Position numbers and translations under genes: made by a program
Origin: a bacterium
GTDB taxonomy: Bacteria; JAAXHH01
Direction: 5' to 3'
Assembly: GCA_965242885.1 (NCBI GenBank)
Contig: CBDETH010000008.1
Location: forward strand, 1,442,225 to 1,506,224
DNA length: 64,000 nt
In this document: positions 3,016-60,321 of the stretch, piece after piece
How the letters are laid out: every line of letters begins with the position of its first letter
How positions within the stretch are numbered: the first letter of the stretch is position 1
Notes under the pieces: generated by a model
Told to the model about the DNA's origin: nothing
What the model saw: only the letters and a program-made list of their open reading frames with translations
Databases searched by the model: none

Positions 3016-3861
3016 TTGAGCCGGAATCCCATGCACGAGGCGAATCGCCGGGGCTGGGACGCCGCTGCCTCTCAATGGCAGGCGGGTATAGACGCCAGGG
3101 TGGACTGGCGGAACATTCCGGGCGATATCCGCATTGCCCTGGACGACGTCGAGTTGAAACACCTCGGCGACGTGTCGGGCCGGTCCGCCTGCGTGCTGGG
3201 CAGCGGGGACAACCTGGTCGTTTTCGCCCTGGCCGCCGCCGGGGCCCGTGTCACTTCCGTGGATATCTCGCAGGCCCAGTTGGATATTGCCGCCGGAAGA
3301 GCGAAAGAACTCGGTCTGTCCATCGTCTTTCACCGGGCGGACGTGACCGAATTGGGAGACCTTGGCGACCCGGACGAACCGGGCGACCCGGACGACCTAA
3401 GCGGTCCTCTTGGCGGTGGTTTCGACATTGTCTACACAGGCGGCCACGTCGCCGTGTGGGTGTCCGATCTGGAGCGCTACTACGGAGAAGCCATTCGGAT
3501 ACTCAAACCCGGCGGCCTCTTCATGGTCAACGAATACCATCCCTTCCGCCGGATATGGAAACCGACGGCAGGTCCGTTGAAGCAGGAATACCACTACTTC
3601 GACCACGGCCCGCTAACTTACGACCGTTCCGAAGATTTAACCGAAGACTCAGGCCGATCGGTTCCGTCCGGTCCGCTTCCCAGCTACGAGTTCCACTGGA
3701 CGGTCTCGGACATGGTCCGCGCGATGCTGGATGGCGGATGCGAACTCACGGCCATGGAGGAATATGGGGACGGGCGTCAGGGCTGGGAGGGCGATGCGCC
3801 GCTGGAGAATCTGCCGGCGAACCTGCTCCTGGTGGGGCGGAAGAAACTGAACTCACCGTGA
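3016..3861 (+). CDS. SAM-dependent methyltransferase, paralog of the 5491-6279 gene
   Basis: Motif ACVLGSGDNLVVFALAAAGARVTSVDIS...RADVTELG. The N-terminus MSRNPMHEANRRGWDAAASQW parallels MHDANRRSWDNNAGSW of the paralog. TTG start at 3016 has an SD 9 nt upstream; an alternative ATG lies at 3031. Confidence 0.7.
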   Translation: MSRNPMHEANRRGWDAAASQWQAGIDARVDWRNIPGDIRIALDDVELKHLGDVSGRSACVLGSGDNLVVFALAAAGARVTSVDISQAQLDIAAGRAKELGLSIVFHRADVTELGDLGDPDEPGDPDDLSGPLGGGFDIVYTGGHVAVWVSDLERYYGEAIRILKPGGLFMVNEYHPFRRIWKPTAGPLKQEYHYFDHGPLTYDRSEDLTEDSGRSVPSGPLPSYEFHWTVSDMVRAMLDGGCELTAMEEYGDGRQGWEGDAPLENLPANLLLVGRKKLNSP

Positions 3862-3984: not shown

Positions 3985-4680
3985 TTACCAGGACCTGAGC
4001 ACCTTCTTCAACAGCTTGCCCCAGACCCGGTCGTAGGGATGGACGACCTGCACGCGCTCGTCGCCCCGGTACACGGGCTTCCCCTCGTTGGCCCAGGCGA
4101 AGATCGATCCTTCCAGGTTGTAGACCTTATCGAATCCCCTCTTCTGCACGAAGGCGGCCATCTCAGACGAGCGGTAGCCCACGGAACAGTAGAGCACGAC
4201 GGGCCGGTCCGGCGGAACGCCTTCAAGCGCCTCTATTGCCGCCTTCTCGGACGAGGCAAGAACGGCGTCTTTCAGGTGGCTGACCTCGTATTCCTCCTTC
4301 GCCCGTACATCGAGGAGCAGCGGATGCTCCGACGGCGCTTGTTCAGACTGTGACTGCTTCGTCAGCGCATGACCCGATTCATCCAGCCAGGTCTGCAGGC
4401 TGTCGGTGGAAAGCTGCGCGACCCCTGGGAACTTTGCACGTATCATCTTAAGTGTGGTCCACCAGAACACGGTGTTATCCTCGGTTTCTTCCTGCGCGGC
4501 AATGGCTGGTACGGAATGGACGGCAATGGGTTTAAACGCCGTGTATACCACGGAGACCGCGATGGCCAGGCCGACCAGACGGACCGCGCAGACCAGGCGG
4601 ACCGCGCAGACCAGGCGGACCGCGTGGCTCACGAAGCGATAGGTAACCGGTTTCGATCCTTGTTGCCCGCCTCGACGCAA
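3985..4680 (-). CDS. Membrane-anchored rhodanese-domain protein (sulfurtransferase-like)
   Basis: C-terminal rhodanese fold with active-site Cys (VVLYCSVGYRSSEMAAF...NLEGSIFAW) and one N-terminal TM helix. TTG start is preceded by SD gagaggag. Confidence 0.65.
   Translation of the reverse strand: MRRGGQQGSKPVTYRFVSHAVRLVCAVRLVCAVRLVGLAIAVSVVYTAFKPIAVHSVPAIAAQEETEDNTVFWWTTLKMIRAKFPGVAQLSTDSLQTWLDESGHALTKQSQSEQAPSEHPLLLDVRAKEEYEVSHLKDAVLASSEKAAIEALEGVPPDRPVVLYCSVGYRSSEMAAFVQKRGFDKVYNLEGSIFAWANEGKPVYRGDERVQVVHPYDRVWGKLLKKVLRSW
4573..4626. repeat. 18-bp x3 in-frame tandem repeat (gaccaggcggaccgcgca) encoding AVRLVC x3 in the N-terminal tail of the rhodanese protein
   Basis: Three consecutive units at 4573-4590, 4591-4608 and 4609-4626, with 1-2 mismatches. 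The unit is a multiple of 3 and preserves the frame. Confidence 0.8.
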
Positions 4681-4788: not shown

Positions 4789-5388
4789 CTACGGGCACAT
4801 GCCTTTCACGGCACGAAGGAACGATTCGATCTCCGTATTGGATCCGAGCCTGACAAATGCGACGTGCCGCCATTCGGGATCCTTCATGCAGGCCTCCATG
4901 CGACGGCGCTTCCTGCCCTGTTGGGTAACGATCCACCAGATCAGCGAGTCCTCCCGGTTCCACACCTTCAGCTGGGGCCAGAACCGCTCGTAATTGGTGC
5001 CCCAGAGCAGCTCTTTCGACCGCCAGCGCTTCCACGACCGGGCCAGCACGCGCCAGAGCAGCCGGTGCACGGGCAGGTCCAGCCAGACGACTGTCTCCAC
5101 GCGGGGCCAGAAGACCCGCTGGGAGAAAGCCATGTAGGAGCCGGAGACGACCCATCCTTCCCCGGCCGTCGCGTCGGCGAGGCGCCGGTCCAGTTCCCCG
5201 GGGTCCGTATCCGCCAGGCCGATCCATCCGGGCTGCCAGTTGAGGGCGTCCAATTCGACCAGGGGGACGTCGAGCGCGGACGCCAGTTGATTCGCCAGGG
5301 TGGATTTCCCGGAGCAACTGTTCCCGGTGACGTGAATCCTGCGCCCAATGGGTCTGCCTCGGTAGGTTGCGACTGCGTTCACGTCCAT
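4789..5388 (-). CDS. P-loop NTPase, adenylate/shikimate-kinase-like (AAA-domain small kinase)
   Basis: Walker A GNSCSGKST near the N-terminus; small size (199 aa); kinase-like layout. The exact start is uncertain. Confidence 0.5.
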   Translation of the reverse strand: MDVNAVATYRGRPIGRRIHVTGNSCSGKSTLANQLASALDVPLVELDALNWQPGWIGLADTDPGELDRRLADATAGEGWVVSGSYMAFSQRVFWPRVETVVWLDLPVHRLLWRVLARSWKRWRSKELLWGTNYERFWPQLKVWNREDSLIWWIVTQQGRKRRRMEACMKDPEWRHVAFVRLGSNTEIESFLRAVKGMCP

Positions 5389-5490
5389 GGACGAACCGGA
5401 GTTTGCGGATCAGATACTGCCCATTGTCGCAGACGGATCCCGGCGTTGTTACTGTCGGGCCACCAGCGTTATTGCGTACGGCCTCCGGCG

Positions 5491-6279
5491 TTATCCAGGC
5501 CTTTGCCATGCCGCCGAAAGCCAGAACGGTAGTGCCGCGCGGGGATTCACCTTCCAGTCCACCAACCGCTTGTCCTTGCCCGGACGATAGGAGGCCCCCT
5601 CCCAGGCATTCGAATCCTCCGCGGGACGTTCCAGGATGTGCCGAAGGACCAGGCCTGCATCTGCCCCGGGGTTCAGCAGGTCGGCCATCGTCCAGTTGAA
5701 TTCGAAGGTTCCCTCTTTTTCGTCCCGAATAGGTCCTGTCTGCCAGTAGGGTTTGTCGACTTCAATGGACATGGCCTCATCCGACCACGGACGCTGGAAA
5801 GGATGCACATCGTAGAAGACGTAGTGTCCTCCCGGTCTCAGTATGCGAAAGACCTCCCCGTAAACCGCGCGGAGATCCGCGATCCAGACGAAGAACCCGT
5901 TGGTCGAACAGACCAGGTCGAACGAACGGTCCGCGATCACGCCGAGATCCATCGCGTCCGCCCGCACGAAGTCTATCGCCAGGCCCAGCTGATCCGCCCG
6001 TGTTGAAGCGGTGGCCAACTGTCGCTCGGAAATATCGATGGAAGTAACATGAGCCTTCATGCCCGCGAGGGCGAAGACGGCATGATTGTCCCCGCTGCCT
6101 ACGACGGCGACGTCCTTCCCTTCCACACTGCCGGTAAGGGATCCGATCAACTCGTATGCGCCGCCCGCGAATCCCAGTTCGGGTTCCTCCGGGCATCGGC
6201 GCCACAGACCGTCCCGGTCCCGCATTTCGGCCCAGGATCCGGCATTGTTGTCCCAGGATCGACGATTGGCATCGTGCAT
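5491..6279 (-). CDS. SAM-dependent methyltransferase, paralog of 3016-3861, with upstream in-frame start-codon repeat array
   Basis: Motif VAVVGSGDNHAVFALAGMKAHVTSIDIS...RADAMDLG. The conserved core starts at ATG 6279 (MHDANRRSW...). The open frame continues through four more ATG-containing repeat units (6309, 6339, 6369, 6399) up to 6597. Confidence 0.7.
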   Translation of the reverse strand: MHDANRRSWDNNAGSWAEMRDRDGLWRRCPEEPELGFAGGAYELIGSLTGSVEGKDVAVVGSGDNHAVFALAGMKAHVTSIDISERQLATASTRADQLGLAIDFVRADAMDLGVIADRSFDLVCSTNGFFVWIADLRAVYGEVFRILRPGGHYVFYDVHPFQRPWSDEAMSIEVDKPYWQTGPIRDEKEGTFEFNWTMADLLNPGADAGLVLRHILERPAEDSNAWEGASYRPGKDKRLVDWKVNPRAALPFWLSAAWQRPG

Positions 6280-6410
6280 CTCCACGGTCCGACGATTGGC
6301 ATCGTGCATCTCCGCGGTCCGGTGATTGGCATCGTGCATCTCCGCGGTCCGACGATTGGCATCGTGCATCTCCGCGGTCCGGTGATTGGCATCGTGCATC
6401 TCCGCGGTCC
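6261..6410. repeat. 30-bp x5 perfect or near-perfect tandem repeat (gacgattggcatcgtgcatctccRcggtcc)
   Basis: Units at 6261-6290, 6291-6320, 6321-6350, 6351-6380 and 6381-6410. On the minus strand each unit encodes RTAEMHDANR(H/R), so each includes an in-frame ATG. Confidence 0.9.
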
Positions 6411-6762
6411 GGCGAGGCGTTGTTGCGGTCATGGCGGCTGGCCTGTTCTTGAAACCGTATATACCGGTGTTGACACCCGGGCAATGGGGGAACTGTTGTC
6501 GTCCGTGTATCCGTCGATCGGGCATCCTTAATATATGAAAGAACACTCCGTAGCCGCAAGCGTACCGCATAAGGCGCTCTTCCTTGCAGGATGCCATTGA
6601 AAATCGGGGAATTCAACCGGCGCGCGGATACGAAAAATAGCCTTGACAGTCGCCGCGTGATCGTGCCTTGTTAACAGGTACGAACGTTTGAGAATCCATC
6701 CGACGCCCGTGCCACAGGGAGGCGCGGCACGGATCATGGAACCGCATCCGCGGAGGAGTGTC

Positions 6763-7086
6763 ATGGCAAAGTACATGTACCGTACCAAGTACACGCAAGC
6801 GGGCCTGCAGGGACTGCTCAGGGAGGGTGGTACAGGCCGGCGCGCGGCCCTTTCGCAGACGATCGAAGGGATGGGTGGCGCCCTGGAAGGATTCTACTAC
6901 GCCATGGGGGACGACGATCTCATCCTGATCGCCGAGATTCCCGACGAAGCCACCGCGACGGCGATCGCCCTCAACGTGGCCGCGGCGGGCGCGCTCGAAG
7001 TATCTACGACGGTGCTGATCTCACCCGAGACGATCGACGAAGCGGTGGGAAAGAGCGTGACCTACCGGTTACCCGGAGCGGAATAA
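6763..7086 (+). CDS. GYD-domain protein
   Basis: MAKYMYRTKYTQAGLQGLL...FYYAMGDDDLILIAEIPD fits the GYD family (~107 aa). SD ggaggag lies 5 nt upstream of ATG 6763. Confidence 0.6.
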   Translation: MAKYMYRTKYTQAGLQGLLREGGTGRRAALSQTIEGMGGALEGFYYAMGDDDLILIAEIPDEATATAIALNVAAAGALEVSTTVLISPETIDEAVGKSVTYRLPGAE

Positions 7087-7226
7087 GGCCGGCCAGGTCG
7101 ATGCACAGGCACGCCGGCCAGGCCCGGTCAGCCGTGGCCAGGTCTGGACGGCCGCGGCCTGACCCGATCATCCGTACCCTGGCCCCGTCCGTCGTGACCC
7201 ATTCCCGCGAACCGAAGATTTAACTG

Positions 7227-7254: not shown

Positions 7255-7432
7255 GATTAGTAACCCCAGCAGTATTAGGTAATCACCTTACGTAATACAT
7301 CGTTGTCCTTCGCGATGACGGCCCTTGAAACCGGACGTAAGCGGCCTGTCATATACGCTATTTTTACCGTTGTTCAGGTCTACAGAAAGAAACGCCTCCA
7401 AACCCAGCTCATCGTTACAGAAGGGAGTCGGT

Positions 7433-7924
7433 ATGGCTAAATCTCTACGCATAATCCCTGAAAAATGCACCGGGTGCATGCAGTGCGAACTGGCATGTTC
7501 CTGGGTGCAGACCGGCATGTTTCAACCATCCCGGTCGCTGATCCGCGTGAACATATTCGATGAGCAGGCCAGTTACGCGCCGTACACCTGTTTCCAGTGC
7601 GACGAAGCCTGGTGCATGACGGCCTGCCCCGTGAATGCCATCAGCATCGACGCGGATACCGGCGCCAAGGTCGTGGGCGATGCCAACTGCGTAGGTTGCG
7701 GGTTGTGCACCATCGCCTGTCCCTTCGGCACGGTGTTCTACAATCCCGACACGCAGAAGGCCTTCAAGTGTGATCTGTGCGACGGCAATCCCGCCTGCGC
7801 GGTCGCCTGCCCGACGGGCGCCATCGAGTACACCGAGAGCGAGTCGGCCGACTGGCTGGGCGGCTGGGCTGAGAAGGTCAACGAGTCCTACCTGACATCC
7901 ATCGAGGGAGGGAACGCGGCATGA
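7433..7924 (+). CDS. 4Fe-4S dicluster ferredoxin-like electron-transfer subunit of aldehyde oxidoreductase (AorA-like)
   Basis: Several CxxCxxCxxxCP motifs (CTGCMQCELAC, CFQCDEAWCMTACP, CVGCGLCTIACP, CDLCDGNPACAVACP). SD aagggag upstream. The 4-nt ATGA overlap with the downstream AOR gene indicates translational coupling. Confidence 0.8.
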   Translation: MAKSLRIIPEKCTGCMQCELACSWVQTGMFQPSRSLIRVNIFDEQASYAPYTCFQCDEAWCMTACPVNAISIDADTGAKVVGDANCVGCGLCTIACPFGTVFYNPDTQKAFKCDLCDGNPACAVACPTGAIEYTESESADWLGGWAEKVNESYLTSIEGGNAA

Positions 7925-9768
7925 GCAACGGCGGATGGACAGGCACGATCCTGCGCGTCGATCTGACCACCGGTCGGATCTCCAAAGAGCCCCTCAACAT
8001 GGACTGGGCAAAGTCCTTCGTGGGCGGGCGCGGCCTCGCGGCCAGATACCTCTATGAAGAGATGGACCCGGCGGCGGACGCGCTGGGCCCGGATAACAAG
8101 ATGATTTTCGCGACCGGTCCCATGACCGGCACGAACGCCTCGACGAGTTCACGCTACATGGTGGTCACCAAGGGGGCGCTGACCAACGCCATTACCACGT
8201 CCAACTCGGGCGGCCACTGGGGACCGGAACTGAAGTTCGCCGGCTACGACATGCTGATCGTGGAAGGCCGGGCGCCGGTTCCGTCCTACATCTCCATCTG
8301 TGACGACGACGTCCGGATCTGCTCCGCCGAGCACCTGTGGGGCAAGACGGTATGGGAGACGGATGACATCGTCCGGGAGGAGTCGGGGCAACACGACACG
8401 GTCGTTACCTGTATCGGTCCGGCGGGCGAGAACCTCGTACGATTCGCCGCCATAGTCAATGACCGGCACCGGGCCGCCGGACGATCCGGCGTCGGCGCGG
8501 TCATGGGTTCGAAGAACCTCAAAGCCATTGCCGTACGCGGTACCGGGGGCGTGCCCATCGCCGACCCGCAGAAGTTCATGTCGGCCATGTGGGAGATGAA
8601 GAGCAAGCTGGTCGAGCATCCGGTAACGGGTGAGGGTCTGGCCGCATACGGCACCGCGGTGCTGGTCAACATCATCAACGAGAGCGGCGCACTGCCGACG
8701 AACAACCACCAGGTCTCGCAGCTGGAAGGCGCAGACAATATCAGTGGGGAGACCCTGGCCGATACGCGGCTGGTGGCCAACAAGGCGTGCTTCGGCTGCA
8801 CGATTGCCTGCGGCAGGGTGTCGCAGCTACCGGGCGAGGCGCAGGACAAGTTCACCGTGACCACCCGGCCCCACAACTGGAAGATCGCGGTGGAGGGACC
8901 GGAGTACGAGAACGCCTGGGCCATGGGCGCCGACTGCGGCATCAATGACCTGGACGCCCTCATCAAGGCGAACGCCATGTGCAACGAACTGGGCATGGAC
9001 CCGATTTCCTTCGGGGCGACGCTCGCCGCGGCCATGGAGCTGTACGAAACCGGCGCCGTGAGCGATGAGCAGACCGGCATGCCGCTGAACTTCGGGAGCG
9101 GCGAGGCACTCGTCGCCATGACGGAGAAGGCGGCCTACCGCGAAGGCTTCGGCGATGAACTGGCCGAGGGTTCCAAGCGCATGACCGCCAAGTTCAACCG
9201 GCCCGAGTTCTTCATGGGCGTGCGCGGCCAGGAGTTTCCGGCCTACGACGCACGGGCGATCCAGGGCATGGGGCTGGGTTATGCGACCTCGAACCGGGGC
9301 GCCTGCCACCTGAAGAGCTACACGGTCGCCCCCGAGATCCTGGGGATCCCGGAAAAGATGGATCCGGCCGTGACGGAAGGCAAGGCGGAGATCACCAAGA
9401 TCTTCCAGGACGCCACCTGCACCGTGGATGCGTCGGGCCTCTGCCTGTTCCTCACCTTCGGCGTGGGCCTGGACGAGATACAACCCCAGCTCGAGGCGGT
9501 GACCGGCATCTCCTACACGGTGCCTGAACTGCTGGAAGTCGGAGAACGCGTCTGGAACATCGAGCGCATGTGGAACCAGCGGGCAGGTTTCACGGGCAAG
9601 GACGACACGTTGCCGAAGCGGCTGCTCGAAGAACCGATCCCCGACGGACCGACCAAGGGCGAAGTAAACCGCCTCGGCGAGATGCTGCCGGAATACTACG
9701 AAATCCGCGGCTGGAACGCGGAAGGCGAACCCACTCAGGAGAAACTGGCGTCGCTGGGACTGGCGTAG
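7921..9768 (+). CDS. aor: Tungsten-containing aldehyde:ferredoxin oxidoreductase (AOR family), copy 1
   Basis: AOR-family N-terminus (GWTGTILRVDLTTGRISKEPL...GGRGLAARYLYEEMDP); 615 aa; CxxC cluster-binding region; adjacent ferredoxin-like and FAD subunits. Confidence 0.9.
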   Translation: MSNGGWTGTILRVDLTTGRISKEPLNMDWAKSFVGGRGLAARYLYEEMDPAADALGPDNKMIFATGPMTGTNASTSSRYMVVTKGALTNAITTSNSGGHWGPELKFAGYDMLIVEGRAPVPSYISICDDDVRICSAEHLWGKTVWETDDIVREESGQHDTVVTCIGPAGENLVRFAAIVNDRHRAAGRSGVGAVMGSKNLKAIAVRGTGGVPIADPQKFMSAMWEMKSKLVEHPVTGEGLAAYGTAVLVNIINESGALPTNNHQVSQLEGADNISGETLADTRLVANKACFGCTIACGRVSQLPGEAQDKFTVTTRPHNWKIAVEGPEYENAWAMGADCGINDLDALIKANAMCNELGMDPISFGATLAAAMELYETGAVSDEQTGMPLNFGSGEALVAMTEKAAYREGFGDELAEGSKRMTAKFNRPEFFMGVRGQEFPAYDARAIQGMGLGYATSNRGACHLKSYTVAPEILGIPEKMDPAVTEGKAEITKIFQDATCTVDASGLCLFLTFGVGLDEIQPQLEAVTGISYTVPELLEVGERVWNIERMWNQRAGFTGKDDTLPKRLLEEPIPDGPTKGEVNRLGEMLPEYYEIRGWNAEGEPTQEKLASLGLA

Positions 9769-9878: not shown

Positions 9879-11708
9879 ATGACACACGGGTGGGCCGGAC
9901 ATATCCTGCGGGTGGACCTGTCGCGGGGCAAGGCGACCAAAGAACCCCTGAGACTGGACTGGGCCGAGGAATACATCGGCGGCCGCGGACTGGCCGCCCG
10001 GTATCTCTACGAGGAGATGGACCCCTCGGCCGACGCCCTCGGTCCCGACAACAAGCTCATCATGGCCACCGGGCCGCTTACGGGCACCAATGCCTCCTGC
10101 GCCGCCCGCTACATGGTGGTCACCAAGGGACCGCTCACCGGCGCCATCACGACGTCCAATTCGGGCGGCCACTGGGGCCCTGAACTCAAGTTCGCCGGCT
10201 ACGACATGGTGATCGTGGAAGGCCGGGCCGACCGTCCCTGCTACCTCCTCGTCGACGATGACCGCGTCGAGATCCGCGACGCCGCCGGCGTGTGGGGCAA
10301 AGTGGTCTCGGAGACCGAGGACGCCATCCGCGACGAGACCGGCATGCCCGAACTGCGGGTGGCCGGCATCGGTCCGGCGGGCGAGAACCTGGTGCGGTTC
10401 GCGTGCATCGTCAACGACAAGCACCGGGCGGCCGGCCGTTCCGGCGTCGGCGCCGTCATGGGCTCCAAGAACCTCAAGGCCATCGCCGTACGCGGCAACC
10501 AGGGCGTGCGGGTCGCGCGGCCCCTGGATTACATGTCCGCCATCTGGTCCTACCACGAGCATCTGGCGGAGAGCCCCGGCCGGCAGGGCCTCACGGAACT
10601 GGGCACGGCCCCCACGGTCGACCTGGTCAACACCTTCGGCGGCCTGCCGACCCGCAATTTCACGGCCGGCCAGTTCGAAGGCACCGAGGCGATCAACGGG
10701 GAGAGCATCAAGGACAACTGGCTGATCGCAAACAAGGCGTGCTTCGCCTGCAATATCGCCTGCGGCCGCGTGACCCAGGTGTCCCCCAACGCCGACAAGT
10801 ACATGGTCAACATGCATCCCCGCAACTGGAAGGTCGCCGGGGAGGGACCGGAGTACGAGAACCTCTGGTCGCTGGGGGCCGACTGCGGCGTGGACGACAT
10901 GGACGCCATCGTCATGGCCAACTACCTGTGCAACGACCTGGGCATGGATCCCATCTCCATGGGCGCCACGCTGGCCACGGCCATGGAGATGTACGAGCGG
11001 GGCCTGCTGAACGATGATCAGACGGGCATGGCGCTCCGGTTCGGAGACGGCAAGGCCCTGGTCGCCATGACGGAAGCCACGGGATTCCGGGAAGGCTTCG
11101 GCGACGAACTGGCCGAAGGCTCCAAGCGGATGACCGACAAGTTCGAGCACCCGGAGTACTTCATGGGCGTCAAGGGGCAGGAGTTCCCGGCCTATGATCC
11201 CCGGGGATTCCAGGGCATGGGCGTGGCCTATGCCACCTGCAACCGCGGCGCCTGCCACCTGAGGGCCTGGACGCCCGGCATCGAGACCAGCGGAGAGTAC
11301 GATCCCCACGGCACTGACGGGAAGTCGGTCTGGGTGGCCGAGGAGCAGAACCGGACCACGGCCCACGACGCCACGGGCATCTGCATGTTCACCACGGCGG
11401 GCGCGCCCCTGGACGACCTGATCCCCGTGCTGTCCGCGGCCACCGGCGTGGACTACACCATGGACGACTTCGTGCACATCGGCGAGCGGATCTGGAACAT
11501 CGAACGGCTGTGGAACCTGAAGGCCGGTCTCACCGCGGCCGATGACACGCTGCCGAAAAGACTGATGGAAGAGGCCCACAAGGAAGGGCCTTCGGCGGGC
11601 GTGACCGTCGATCTCGACGCCATGCTGCCGGACTACTACGCCGCCCGGGGATGGACGGCGGACGGACGGCCCACCACGGAAAAACTGGTGGAGCTGGGCC
11701 TCGCGTAG
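9879..11708 (+). CDS. aor: Tungsten-containing aldehyde:ferredoxin oxidoreductase (AOR family), copy 2, a tandem paralog
   Basis: About 65-70% identical to copy 1 along its whole length (GHILRVDLSRGKATKEPL...GGRGLAARYLYEEMDP...). Confidence 0.9.
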   Translation: MTHGWAGHILRVDLSRGKATKEPLRLDWAEEYIGGRGLAARYLYEEMDPSADALGPDNKLIMATGPLTGTNASCAARYMVVTKGPLTGAITTSNSGGHWGPELKFAGYDMVIVEGRADRPCYLLVDDDRVEIRDAAGVWGKVVSETEDAIRDETGMPELRVAGIGPAGENLVRFACIVNDKHRAAGRSGVGAVMGSKNLKAIAVRGNQGVRVARPLDYMSAIWSYHEHLAESPGRQGLTELGTAPTVDLVNTFGGLPTRNFTAGQFEGTEAINGESIKDNWLIANKACFACNIACGRVTQVSPNADKYMVNMHPRNWKVAGEGPEYENLWSLGADCGVDDMDAIVMANYLCNDLGMDPISMGATLATAMEMYERGLLNDDQTGMALRFGDGKALVAMTEATGFREGFGDELAEGSKRMTDKFEHPEYFMGVKGQEFPAYDPRGFQGMGVAYATCNRGACHLRAWTPGIETSGEYDPHGTDGKSVWVAEEQNRTTAHDATGICMFTTAGAPLDDLIPVLSAATGVDYTMDDFVHIGERIWNIERLWNLKAGLTAADDTLPKRLMEEAHKEGPSAGVTVDLDAMLPDYYAARGWTADGRPTTEKLVELGLA

Positions 11709-11720
11709 CGAATCCCAATC

Positions 11721-11764
11721 CACGGATGACAAACAACCACGGATGACAAACAACCACGGATGAC
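11721..11764. repeat. 17-bp x2.6 tandem repeat (cacggatgacaaacaac) between aor copy 2 and the FAD-subunit gene
   Basis: Units at 11721-11737 and 11738-11754, with a partial unit at 11755-11764. Confidence 0.8.
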
Positions 11765-16867: not shown

Positions 16868-16950
16868 CGGACAACAGGTTACACACAGCAGTCACGTCAC
16901 TTACGATGGGCACAGTCTTATATTCTACAACTTACACCCGTCGCTTCTTC

Positions 16951-16988
16951 AAGTGATACGCCAGATATCAAGTGATACGCCAGATATC
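16951..16988. repeat. 19-bp x2 tandem repeat (aagtgatacgccagatatc) in intergenic DNA
   Basis: Identical units at 16951-16969 and 16970-16988. Confidence 0.85.
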
Positions 16989-17045
16989 ACGGCGGGCCGA
17001 ATATAGCCGCCCGCTTCCGATTTGTCCAGTTCGGCATCCTGTGTG

Positions 17046-18170: not shown

Positions 18171-18230
18171 GCGCGCCACCTCGCGCGTGCGCCACCTCGC
18201 GCGTGCGCCACCTCGCGCGTGCGCCACATC
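18171..18230. repeat. 16-bp x3.75 tandem repeat (gcgccacctcgcgcgt) in the 5' leader of the dehydratase gene
   Basis: Units at 18171-18186, 18187-18202 and 18203-18218, with a partial unit at 18219-18230. The unit is not a multiple of 3, so it is non-coding. Confidence 0.85.
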
Positions 18231-24807: not shown

Positions 24808-24941
24808 AAAAAGGTCCTATTCTGCAGGGTGCAGGGACCAAAAATCATGGGCCGAAAAACCTCGTCCATGGTATGACGCGCAAGGTCGAGTGTCAAGGGA
24901 AACAGCCGCCTTCCCACGGGCCGGTCCGCGGCTCACATGGC

Positions 24942-25040
24942 GGCCCGCCGGCAACCTGTTCGAGGTACGTCCCACGGCCCGCCGGCAGCCTGTTCGAGGT
25001 ACGTCCCACGGCCCGTTTCCGGCCCGCCGGCAGCCGTTTT
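24942..25040. repeat. ~34-bp x2 (plus a degenerate third) tandem repeat (ggcccgccggcaRcctgttcgaggtacgtcccac) in the divergent intergenic region
   Basis: Units start at 24942 and 24976; a degenerate copy runs from 25010 to 25040. Confidence 0.8.
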
Positions 25041-25097
25041 AGTCCTTGATCGGACCCCGCCGGGCCGATACATTGTGCCCATCCCGGAACGACCGGC

Positions 25098-25157
25098 GAT
25101 CAACCGGCGATCAACCGGCGATCAACCGGCGATCAACCGGTGATCGACCGGTAAACG
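25098..25157. repeat. 12-bp x5 tandem repeat (gatcaaccggcg), each unit carrying GATC and ACCGG
   Basis: Units at 25098, 25110, 25122, 25134 and 25146. With a further GATC at ~25176, there are six GATC sites within ~80 bp. Confidence 0.85.
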
Positions 25158-41970: not shown

Positions 41971-44022
41971 ATGAGCGACACCACCAGGCGTGAACACCAG
42001 GATCGGCACGACCGGGAAGCCGATTCCGCCGGACAGGACGACCGGTGGCAGATCGTGCCGGACAGCCTGCCCTACGAGGACGGGTTCAGCAGCCGGATCA
42101 TCTGGGCCGCCTTCTTCGTCGGGCTGGTCATGCTTCCGGGGGCGATCTACCTGGAACTGGTGACCGGAAAGAGTTTCGCGGGCGCCGCGGAATGGGTCAC
42201 CATCATCATGTTCATCGAGATCGGGAAGCGCCTGTTCATCAAGCTGAAGCCCCAGGAAGCCATCATCCTCTACTGGCTCGCTGCCGGCCTGGCGGCGACG
42301 GGACTGGGCGCCAGCGGCATGGCGGCCGGGTCATCGGTGCACGGCGCGCCTTTCGCCAAGATGATCTGGTTCCAGTATCTGATCCAGTCCCCCCAGGCGG
42401 ACGGCCTGGCCCAGCTTCTGCCCCAGTGGGTATCGCCGCCCAGAGGTTCCGATTCCCTGATCACCCGGACCCTCTTCTCCATGGAGTGGCTGGAACCCAT
42501 CCTGCTGGCCGTCCTCGTGTCCATCCTCGGCCTGGTCAACGCCCTTTCGCTGGGATACGTGCTCTTCCGCATCACGGCGGACACCGAACGCCTGCCCTTT
42601 CCCCTGGCGCCCGTACAGGCGGCCGGCGCCACCGCGCTGGCGGAATCGTCCGCGGGCGAAGAGACCTGGCGGTGGCGCCTGTTTACCGTCGGCGCCATGA
42701 TCGGCCTGGGTTGGGGTATTCTGTACGTCGTCGTTCCGACGGTATCGGGCGTGGTGCTGACCAAGGGGGTCGAAGTCTTCCCCATTCCCTTCGCGGACTT
42801 TACGCCGCGGGTCCGGGACGTGCTGCCCGCGTCGCCCATCGGCATCGGCACGGACATGGCCACGCTCCTGGTGGGTTTCGTTCTGCCCTTCTGGATCGTG
42901 GTCGGTACTTTCATCAGTTCTTTCGTCGTCACCTTCATCGCCAACCCGGCCCTCTACCACTTCGGCCTTTTGCACAGCTGGGCGCCGGGGATGAGCACCA
43001 TCCCCACTTCCATCAACAACACCATCGATTTCTGGCTGAGTTTTTCCTCCATCGGCACTTCGCTGGTCATCGGCCTGATCGGCCTGGTCGCCTTCGCCCG
43101 CGCCCTGCGACGAGACCCGGACGGCCCGTCGGGCGCCCAGGGACCCCGCCGGCCGCCGCCGGACCGGGGCGATTTCAGGCTGCCTATCCCCATCGCGCTC
43201 TGGGCGGTCTCGACCCTTTGCTTCATTCTCCTGGTCTACTACCTCGAACCCACGTTTCCGGTATGGATCTCCCTGGTATTCGGGTTCCTGTGGACGCCCT
43301 TCTTCTCCTACATCGGCGCGCGCATGATCGGTCTCACGGGCTCGCCCTACGGATCGTCCTTCCCCTACGCGAGGGAGGGCTCCTTCTACCTGTCGGGCTA
43401 CAAGGGCGTGGCCATCTGGTTCGCGCCGGTTCCGCTCTTCGATCACAGCGGCGTGGTCGCGACCTTCCGGCAGCTGGAACTCACCCGAACGCGATTTCCA
43501 AGCCTGGTCAAACTCTATATATTGAGCCTGTTGCTGCTCATCGTATTCAGTTTCCTGTTCTACGCCCTGATCTGGAAACTGGCGCCCATACCGTCCGCGG
43601 CCTATCCCTTCGTCGAGAAGATGTGGCCGCTGCAGGCGACGATGGAGACGATCTGGATCAAGTCGACCCTGCCGGGCGGATCGGATGTGATCGGGCAGCT
43701 CATCAAGTGGGAGTACATCGGCGCCGGGATGGGGTTCACGGTGGCCCTGTACGGGGTCCTGAGCCTGCTCAAAGCGCCGCCGCTGCTGTTCTACGGCCTG
43801 GTCGCGGGACTGGGCACCGGCGCTTGGATTCATTACACGTTGCCCACGTTCATCGGAGCGATGCTGGGCCGGTTCTATTTCGGGCGGCGCTATGGCGAGA
43901 AGAGATGGCGGGCCTACGCGCCCGTGATCCTCGCCGGGTACGGGTGCGGCCTGGGCCTGATCGGCATGGCGGCCGTCTCCCTGGTGCTGATCGCCAAGTC
44001 CACGTCCCAGATCCTGTTCTGA
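41971..44022 (+). CDS. Polytopic integral membrane protein, uncharacterised family, divergent paralog C (683 aa)
   Basis: Same overall layout as A and B. Weaker shared blocks (FRITADTERLPFP; C-terminal ...RWRAYAPVILAGYGCGLGLIG). Confidence 0.55.
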   Translation: MSDTTRREHQDRHDREADSAGQDDRWQIVPDSLPYEDGFSSRIIWAAFFVGLVMLPGAIYLELVTGKSFAGAAEWVTIIMFIEIGKRLFIKLKPQEAIILYWLAAGLAATGLGASGMAAGSSVHGAPFAKMIWFQYLIQSPQADGLAQLLPQWVSPPRGSDSLITRTLFSMEWLEPILLAVLVSILGLVNALSLGYVLFRITADTERLPFPLAPVQAAGATALAESSAGEETWRWRLFTVGAMIGLGWGILYVVVPTVSGVVLTKGVEVFPIPFADFTPRVRDVLPASPIGIGTDMATLLVGFVLPFWIVVGTFISSFVVTFIANPALYHFGLLHSWAPGMSTIPTSINNTIDFWLSFSSIGTSLVIGLIGLVAFARALRRDPDGPSGAQGPRRPPPDRGDFRLPIPIALWAVSTLCFILLVYYLEPTFPVWISLVFGFLWTPFFSYIGARMIGLTGSPYGSSFPYAREGSFYLSGYKGVAIWFAPVPLFDHSGVVATFRQLELTRTRFPSLVKLYILSLLLLIVFSFLFYALIWKLAPIPSAAYPFVEKMWPLQATMETIWIKSTLPGGSDVIGQLIKWEYIGAGMGFTVALYGVLSLLKAPPLLFYGLVAGLGTGAWIHYTLPTFIGAMLGRFYFGRRYGEKRWRAYAPVILAGYGCGLGLIGMAAVSLVLIAKSTSQILF

Positions 44023-44070
44023 CGTCCCGGATCCTGTGCTGACACGCGAATTGACCTGGAAACCTGTTCC

Positions 44071-59897: not shown

Positions 59898-60321
59898 GAT
59901 CTCCTCTGGGAGGCGGCAGTCTGTTAGACGGCGCTCTGACAGACGGCAGTCTGTTACCCGATGGCAGCCAGTCCGTCACCCGATGTTTGAAGTGGCTTAA
60001 GGTGCCCCAGGGCATTGCTCACGGTCACAAAAATACCTTGCAACGGGGTAGTCCCGGTCTTATCATTTTGAATCATTACAACAGTTTCCAAGACGGAAAC
60101 AATTAGTACATTTCCCAAACCAGAACTTCGTACTGCGATTCCCGGTACAGTCAATGTCCGGCCCGGATACGGTTGCCGGACGGCCGTGAAACTCGTAAGA
60201 CTCACGAAGAGTAACATTCACGGCTCATTTGATGACGAGGAAGCGTATGAGTGGGCGTGACGGTAAAGGTCAATCAGGGGATAGGCCCGGGTCGCCTGCG
60301 CCGTTGTTAACGCGGAGGACC

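Follow-up and report, generated by a model that had tools for sequence, protein, structure and literature searches.

In-frame coding variable-number tandem repeats (VNTRs) of bacteria, which are used for multiple-locus VNTR analysis (MLVA) typing and include those of Mycobacterium tuberculosis (PMC12817950), consist of head-to-tail units tens of bp long; their copy number differs between close strains in a polyphyletic manner, and the intragenic units are multiples of 3, so that the frame survives. Microhomology-mediated tandem duplication (MTD) has been described in Schizosaccharomyces pombe, natural isolates included (Dan et al., 2021, PMC8639346), and the contingency loci of Neisseria, Haemophilus and Helicobacter carry slippage-prone repeats near the 5′ ends of genes, with repeat copy numbers that differ from strain to strain (PMC5084427; PMC4081817). 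Here we analysed a 64,000-nt stretch of a bacterial genome (GTDB lineage JAAXHH01; assembly GCA_965242885.1, contig CBDETH010000008.1, positions 1,442,225 to 1,506,224), hereafter the window, in which five 30-bp units are repeated in tandem near the 5′ end of a gene for a class I S-adenosylmethionine (SAM)-dependent methyltransferase. We consider it probable that this array is a polymorphic in-frame coding minisatellite, one that arose in a repeat-prone lineage through microhomology-mediated slippage and is tolerated at the free N-terminus of an ordinary methyltransferase. It resembles bacterial coding VNTRs in all the properties listed above. Unlike the well-studied functional cases of M. tuberculosis, which lie in promoters (lpdA, dop) or in surface/PE/PPE proteins, it is situated in the N-terminal tail of what appears to be a cytoplasmic small-molecule-type methyltransferase with no known phenotype.

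The array was detected by Tandem Repeats Finder (TRF) at 6260..6415 (window positions, as throughout) with a period of 30, 5.2 copies, 93% matches, 0 indels and a score of 270, which makes it by far the top-scoring tandem repeat of the window. By comparison, when the window was shuffled 100 times (Markov-3), the best score at periods of at least 7 reached 84 at most, with a median of 47. The gene and its units are arranged as follows.

5491..6432, minus strand: coding sequence of the class I SAM-dependent methyltransferase, 313 aa plus stop codon (Pfam, homologues, AlphaFold2/Foldseek)
6430..6432, minus strand: most likely start codon, ATG of MTATTPR... (conservation, public annotation, upstream stops)
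6262..6411, minus strand: five complete 30-bp head-to-tail units (TRF, unit dissection)
6411-6382, minus strand: unit 1, RTAEMHDANH
6381-6352, minus strand: unit 2, RTAEMHDANR
6351-6322, minus strand: unit 3, RTAEMHDANH
6321-6292, minus strand: unit 4, RTAEMHDANR
6291-6262, minus strand: unit 5 (last), RTVEMHDANR, followed by RSWDNN
6256..6261, minus strand: partial sixth copy CGATCC, the extra 0.2 copy of TRF, where the conserved protein RSWDNN... resumes

All five units share the reading frame of the methyltransferase open reading frame (ORF) 5491..6597(-); with a period above 10 bp that is a multiple of 3, located within an ORF whose frame is kept, the array is an in-frame coding minisatellite. 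Units 1 and 2 are exactly identical to units 3 and 4 (a perfect 60 bp x2), and the array is therefore composed of (60 bp)x2 and one further unit, unit 5, which differs by a single GCG>GTG change. After unit 5 the minus strand reads CGA TCC TGG (RSW...), and the first two bases of the partial copy form the end of the microhomology arm CGTCG (6264..6260) described below. The original prediction, made from the sequence alone, had proposed five in-frame 30-bp units on the minus strand, and TRF, unit dissection and shuffles agree with it. Its description of the array was accurate but its coordinates (6261-6410) were one base off, and the "first unit" that it had noted as different on the plus strand is the last minus-strand unit, with GCG>GTG. 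Readings of the array as iterons, as an operator array or as CRISPR-like were ruled out by the single copy in most relatives, the lack of spacers and the coding location. The antisense ORF 6049..6531(+) and an alternative-frame ORF 6147..6392(-), neither with separate support, were attributed to the high GC content and the repeat.

Copy number is polymorphic among close genomes, with 1, 2 and 5 copies present inside the 90%-identity cluster to which the window belongs. Single-copy alleles of this cluster are P0123, P0125, P0126, P0128, P0129, P0133, P0130, P0131 and P0132, among which P0130 (283 aa) and P0131 and P0132 (319 aa) are longer solely through upstream start calls; further single-copy alleles are P0001-3 and P0006-8. 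Two copies were found in P0122, P0124, P0127, P0134 and P0004 of the same cluster and in P0009 of another, these six alleles being, with their loci, P0134/L142, P0127/L143, P0122 and P0124/L144, P0004/L145 and P0009/L146. The window alone among the alleles of its cluster has five. In nine further 90% clusters the members are 273 or 262 aa long, barring three exceptions: P0137 (274 aa) and P0166 (300 aa, a longer upstream start call) are single copy, and P0141 (259 aa) was left out of the inspection. The L142 scaffold, which is 97% nt-identical to the window, carries exactly the H,R pair of the window, and the difference between 2 and 5 copies at this identity thus represents within-species variation. 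Variation among related alleles (1, 2 or 5 copies) is also what slipped-strand mispairing, the process invoked in the original prediction, would produce. Exact look-ups of the 313-aa protein, its GYD neighbour and its 199-aa neighbour for near-identical strains returned one TARA scaffold only.

Duplication at this site has occurred more than once. A distinct 13-aa (39-bp) duplication, EMHDANRRSWDYN x2, is present at the same spot in P0005 of L147, of which P0137 is the single-copy sister allele. In a neighbor-joining tree of the core protein the duplicated alleles fall into at least two clades with single-copy alleles between them, and L145 has a lineage-specific CTG codon in both copies. Taken together, these observations indicate at least two independent duplications (30-bp and 39-bp); there were probably more than two events, with at least two further expansions in the lineage of the window. 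The locus is thereby a ready-made VNTR strain marker for an uncultured symbiont lineage.

The single-copy loci L001 and L020 both read CCT CGC/CGG ACC GCG GAG ATG CAC GAT GCC AAC CGC/CGA TCC TGG. The pentamer CGCCG occurs twice in this sequence, exactly 30 bp apart, with 7/9 bases matching when the next CC is counted. When the window is compared codon by codon with L001, L020 and L142-L147, the two arms are placed as follows.

6410..6414, minus strand: upstream microhomology arm CGCCG
6264..6260, minus strand: downstream microhomology arm, CGTCG in the window and CGCCG in single-copy relatives

In every 30-bp allele the duplication junction lies at CGCCG, the junctions of L143-L145 being CGC/CGG or CGC/CTG, so that both a single-copy allele with a direct repeat one unit apart and a junction on that repeat are observed. 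The distant clade (L003-L009, L081) has no CGCCG pair and single copies only. With just 1 nt of microhomology, the 39-bp duplication in L147 indicates that microhomology is not needed for every event. The array was probably initiated by replication slippage between the CGCCG pentamers 30 bp apart, that is, by MTD, and slipped-strand or unequal exchange of the ordinary kind probably enlarged it once there were two copies. In its simplest form the history would lead from one copy to two (H,R), then through a 60-bp duplication to H,R,H,R, and finally to an extra unit with GCG>GTG. The locus is similar to the MTD described in yeast (PMC8639346) in its direct repeat one unit apart, the junction on that repeat and the kept frame, and in the interspersion of single-copy and duplicated alleles among relatives, a pattern that frequent gain and reversion would predict. 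It differs in that the yeast events are mostly subclonal and two-copy, whereas five copies are fixed here in an assembled bacterial genome, and in the low microhomology of the independent L147 event.

The methyltransferase ORF matches Pfam Methyltransf_11/25/31/12, and the methyltransferase core begins at Met 52 (codon ATG 6279..6277). With the 262-aa core as query, 645 homologues were found, the closest of which (75-92% identity) are from metagenome-assembled genomes (MAGs) of Gemmatimonadota. The related loci come from genome and metagenome collections, and by their names we take them to be sponge-metagenome bins; the lineage of the window is apparently a sponge-associated one of the Gemmatimonadota. 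Gene order (GYD protein, methyltransferase, 199-aa P-loop protein and rhodanese) is common to the related loci. The nearest solved structures by sequence and, in Foldseek, by fold are 3bkw, MitM, ToxA and UbiG, all small-molecule class I methyltransferases. These similarities point to a small-molecule-type enzyme of the cytoplasm, with no indication of a DNA methyltransferase or a surface protein.

That the last unit represents the conserved N-terminus, as had been proposed from its likeness to a paralog, was borne out by pairwise alignment: the paralog at 3016..3861(+) shares 34% identity with the protein and aligns with it from MHEANRRGW onward, opposite the last unit. The family-invariant N-terminal residues H53, N56, W60 and W67 lie in or after this last copy, which is contiguous with the rest of the protein, and they thereby keep their native context. 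In an AlphaFold2 model built from a 58-sequence alignment (mean predicted local distance difference test [pLDDT] score 89, predicted template modelling [pTM] score 0.84), residues 8-74 form one long helix, with the repeats extending the native N-terminal helix outward and a normal Rossmann core; the repeat columns of the alignment are filled by the query alone, and the helix over the repeats is therefore a weak prediction. For the methyltransferase itself the array matters little: the conserved core is left intact, and extra copies are absent from most relatives.

Short tandem repeats are abundant in the window as a whole. At a cut-off of period at least 7 and TRF score at least 50, the window contains 18 arrays (2.8 per 10 kb), compared with 0.5 per 64 kb in the shuffles, and the homologous loci of Gemmatimonadota relatives contain 4.2 per 10 kb. 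Control densities per 10 kb are 0.42 in loci of Chloroflexota and other MAGs with the same 61% GC, 0.48 in Paenibacillus and 0.55 in Clostridia. The lineage is thus about 6-fold richer in short tandem repeats than equal-GC controls. Many arrays of the window are 95-100% perfect, examples being the following.

884-929, 7116-7175, 11720-11764, 16949-16989 and 18173-18227: short tandem arrays (TRF)
24941-25015, 25092-25151, 44002-44043 and 59914-59956: further short tandem arrays (TRF)

Array periods are sorted by frame: inside confident coding sequence they are multiples of 3 (9, 18, 30, 18 and 15), and between genes or upstream of likely starts they take other values (17, 20, 17, 19, 16, 34, 11 and 32). 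The rhodanese gene 3985..4680(-) contains an in-frame 18-bp x2.9 array (VRLVCA x3) at 4547-4624, in its N-terminal hydrophobic segment, and the rhodanese genes of relatives have different in-frame expansions at the same place (L002, L006, L007, L008, L146 and L147), among them a long GAGGAG/GAAGAA-type run in L006. The 5′ untranslated region (5′UTR) or promoter-proximal region of the methyltransferase gene, about 100-200 nt upstream of the ATG, has its own 13-18-bp duplications of 2-3 copies in relatives (L020, L002, L004, L005/L080 and L008), such as TGGTCATACCGGATAT, x3 in L005 and x2 in L004.

Genome-wide tandem duplication combined with frame-filtering selection explains these arrays, and no special role is therefore needed for that of the methyltransferase. 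In a lineage that makes short tandem duplications at a high rate everywhere, an in-frame array at a free protein end would persist, selection removing only those duplications that disrupt genes. The array is most plausibly a case of near-neutral standing variation and not a regulatory device. The lineage-wide excess of roughly 6-fold, with repeats that recur at protein N-termini, is more interesting than the methyltransferase array itself, and the lineage would be a natural system for studying bacterial microhomology-mediated duplication and its filtering by selection. A literature search on repeat richness in sponge-associated Gemmatimonadota found nothing relevant.

The original prediction had regarded the array as a plausible contingency or expression-tuning locus. 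A related possibility is that copy number of the 10-aa unit is selected for tuning of the enzyme, with slippage supplying heritable, reversible variants that act through a longer or shielded N-terminal lid helix, decoy MHDAN motifs, or altered translation efficiency or protein stability. Such selection would fit the change from 2 to 5 copies within about 97% nt identity, the recurrence of duplications at the site (the independent 39-bp event included) and the presence of the family-invariant residues H53 and N56 in the unit. PDB titles for structurally related methyltransferases such as ToxA list mutants of the N-terminal Tyr7 (Y7A, Y7F), a residue probably of functional importance. For M. tuberculosis, altered lpdA expression with VNTR copy number has also been reported (PMC12817950).

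Features around the array are hard to reconcile with tuning, beginning with a candidate promoter.

6530..6559, minus strand: promoter-like element TTGCGG-N18-TATATT (candidate), conserved in 12/12 related loci

This element, which scores below the sigma-70 consensus threshold of the promoter scan, would give a 5′UTR of about 91 nt, and the array lies at least 100 nt downstream of it. When the putative mRNA was folded, the mean unpaired probability of AUG 6432 was 0.59-0.62 for 1 to 5 units, and tuning by RNA structure was rejected on this predicted flat accessibility. The contingency loci cited above have units of 1-7 nt that cause frameshifts or changes in promoter spacing in surface or restriction-modification genes (PMC5084427; PMC4081817). 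In contrast, the 30-nt unit here is always in frame, its length being a multiple of 3, which allows no on/off frameshift; it lies outside the promoter and does not alter promoter spacing; and the gene, with Pfam Methyltransf_11/25/31 matches only, is neither a DNA methyltransferase nor a surface, restriction-modification or other host- or environment-interface gene. Arrays of the same type are spread across the window and also occur in the neighbouring gene, which makes a special explanation unnecessary, and a single copy suffices in most relatives. The contingency and expression-tuning role thus finds no support, and we regard selected tuning of the enzyme as unlikely. The same holds for the broader idea that the symbiont exploits lineage-wide, high-rate short tandem duplication, much of it microhomology-mediated, as a reversible N-terminal "length rheostat", whose targets may be the lid helix of the methyltransferase and the signal- or anchor-like segment of the rhodanese; if this doubtful scenario were true, the recurrent hits at the same sites would reflect selection and not tolerance alone.

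Other regulatory candidates were considered for the upstream region. Promoter copies inside the units were rejected because the consensus scan found no promoter-like site on either strand in 5300..6900, array included, a scan that also misses the conserved TTGCGG-N18-TATATT. A known RNA element, such as a SAM riboswitch, in the 91-nt leader was rejected since Rfam gave no match there; the sole Rfam match, anti-hemB, lies outside the leader and is at chance level (19.8 bits; gathering score 49.5). About 30-45 nt upstream of the start codon (window ~6461-6478, minus strand) lies an imperfect palindrome, CCCGGGTGTCAACACCGG. It is kept in the close relatives L001, L020, L002 and L142-L147, has no match in Rfam, and could be an operator or an RNA hairpin.

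The ATG at 6432 precedes the Met of the ancestral unit by 11 codons (33 nt), and in each of 18 relatives, down to 75% identity, an ATG is present 33 nt before the "MH" codon. The 33 nt that follow this ATG contain 0 indels in these relatives, yet their sequence diverges freely (leader variants MTATTPRRTAE, MSAKDPAQTNR, MNVKASRRTAE and MTSADPPRTIP). Further upstream, indels and small duplications abound, and several relatives have in-frame stops just before the invariant ATG. Most close homologues are 273 aa long and read MTATTPRRTAE followed by MHDANRRSW.... The public NCBI-derived record of this exact gene (P0121) is 313 aa long and starts at ATG 6432, and no shorter or longer versions of the 313-aa product were found in the public protein collection searched. 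Translation most likely starts at this upstream ATG, which is well supported though not proven by the comparative data. All five units would then be translated with their repeated Met codons internal, and the array most likely inserts 40 residues after the 7-residue head MTATTPR, ahead of the native sequence, with the context of the conserved core kept. Located inside the N-terminal tail, it would alter neither start choice nor 5′UTR length.

The repeated ATG had instead been read as a duplicated start codon, giving a ladder of N-terminal extensions or a changed 5′UTR length. That all or some of the repeated ATGs initiate, producing N-terminal isoforms or shifting the effective 5′UTR, is suggested by the GGAG that precedes the in-frame ATG in each unit and by the many distant homologues and some gene callers that begin the protein at the repeated Met (262-aa entries). 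However, GGAG abuts each repeated ATG with 0-nt spacing, too close for a Shine-Dalgarno site of the Escherichia coli type, whereas the neighbouring GYD gene has a normally spaced GGAGGAG-N4-ATG. At the position of the repeated Met, the single-copy allele P0126 has Ile and the first copy of P0122/P0124 has Arg; P0037 and P0041, two distant homologues whose proteins begin a few residues earlier, have Ile or Tyr there. A usable context together with a conserved Met at each AUG, as alternative in-frame starts would show, was thus not found, and the invariant upstream ATG, the frame kept in the 18 relatives and the public annotation at 6432 likewise argue against initiation within the array, which we judge quite improbable; neither the duplicated start nor the extension ladder is upheld. 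Start annotation in the family is inconsistent (262 vs 273 aa), and the comparative data favour the upstream ATG. Every unit also contains an out-of-frame ATG (gATGcc) 7 nt past GGAG, a good Shine-Dalgarno spacing, which opens the 81-aa alternative-frame ORF at 6147..6392(-). It is present in single-copy relatives as well and is probably meaningless, although it could be a decoy start.

It is extremely improbable that mis-assembly of the 150-bp repeat inflated a lower true copy number (e.g., 2), although five copies have been seen in a single public genome and the nearest strain carries 2. Periodicity is interrupted by three sites that vary among the units, and as the exact 60-bp period extends over ~126 bp, k-mers longer than ~66 are unique. 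The source contig of 3,843,003 bp suggests a long-read assembly, and duplications at the site are present in at least five independent assemblies from different assemblers. Unit variants, which the original prediction had already cited against a pure artefact, and the 2-copy alleles of independent assemblies likewise speak against one.

Several considerations weigh against a near-neutral coding minisatellite translated from ATG 6432. The 5-copy allele was seen in this one genome only. Recurrent duplications in one 40-bp spot could mean selection for a longer N-terminus, and a mutational hot spot, tolerance and positive selection are inseparable with these data. Repeat densities were compared over mutually homologous loci, which leaves the other 60 kb of the window as the only independent sample. 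The confidence of the AlphaFold2 repeat helix, which rests on query-only alignment columns, may be inflated. As regards the start codon, which is deduced from conservation, several pipelines place the start of single-copy relatives at the second ATG, giving 262-aa entries, and all three codon positions vary in the 11-codon leader, a pattern that is uninformative.

Some further features of the window and its homologues were observed. A 4.3-kb segment contains three genes for class I SAM methyltransferases (2154-2945, 3016-3861 and 5491-6432), of which those at 3016 and 5491 are paralogs. The paralog at 3016..3861(+) has a 9-bp x3.6 array at 3366-3397 that encodes DPDEPGDPDD and sits, in the pairwise alignment, in an insertion relative to the 5491 gene. 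Among the close homologues, P0035 (291 aa) has a C-terminus that is frameshifted or divergent past about residue 205, which gives it an artefactually long tree branch. On the plus strand, a 4Fe-4S ferredoxin-like gene (7325-7924) precedes a tandem pair of paralogous genes of about 610 aa each (7921-9768 and 9879-11708), and the counterparts of the genes of this region in L147 match Pfam AFOR_N/AFOR_C (aldehyde:ferredoxin oxidoreductase) and Fer4. The gene at 9879-11708 is followed by a perfect 17-bp x2.6 repeat (11720-11764).

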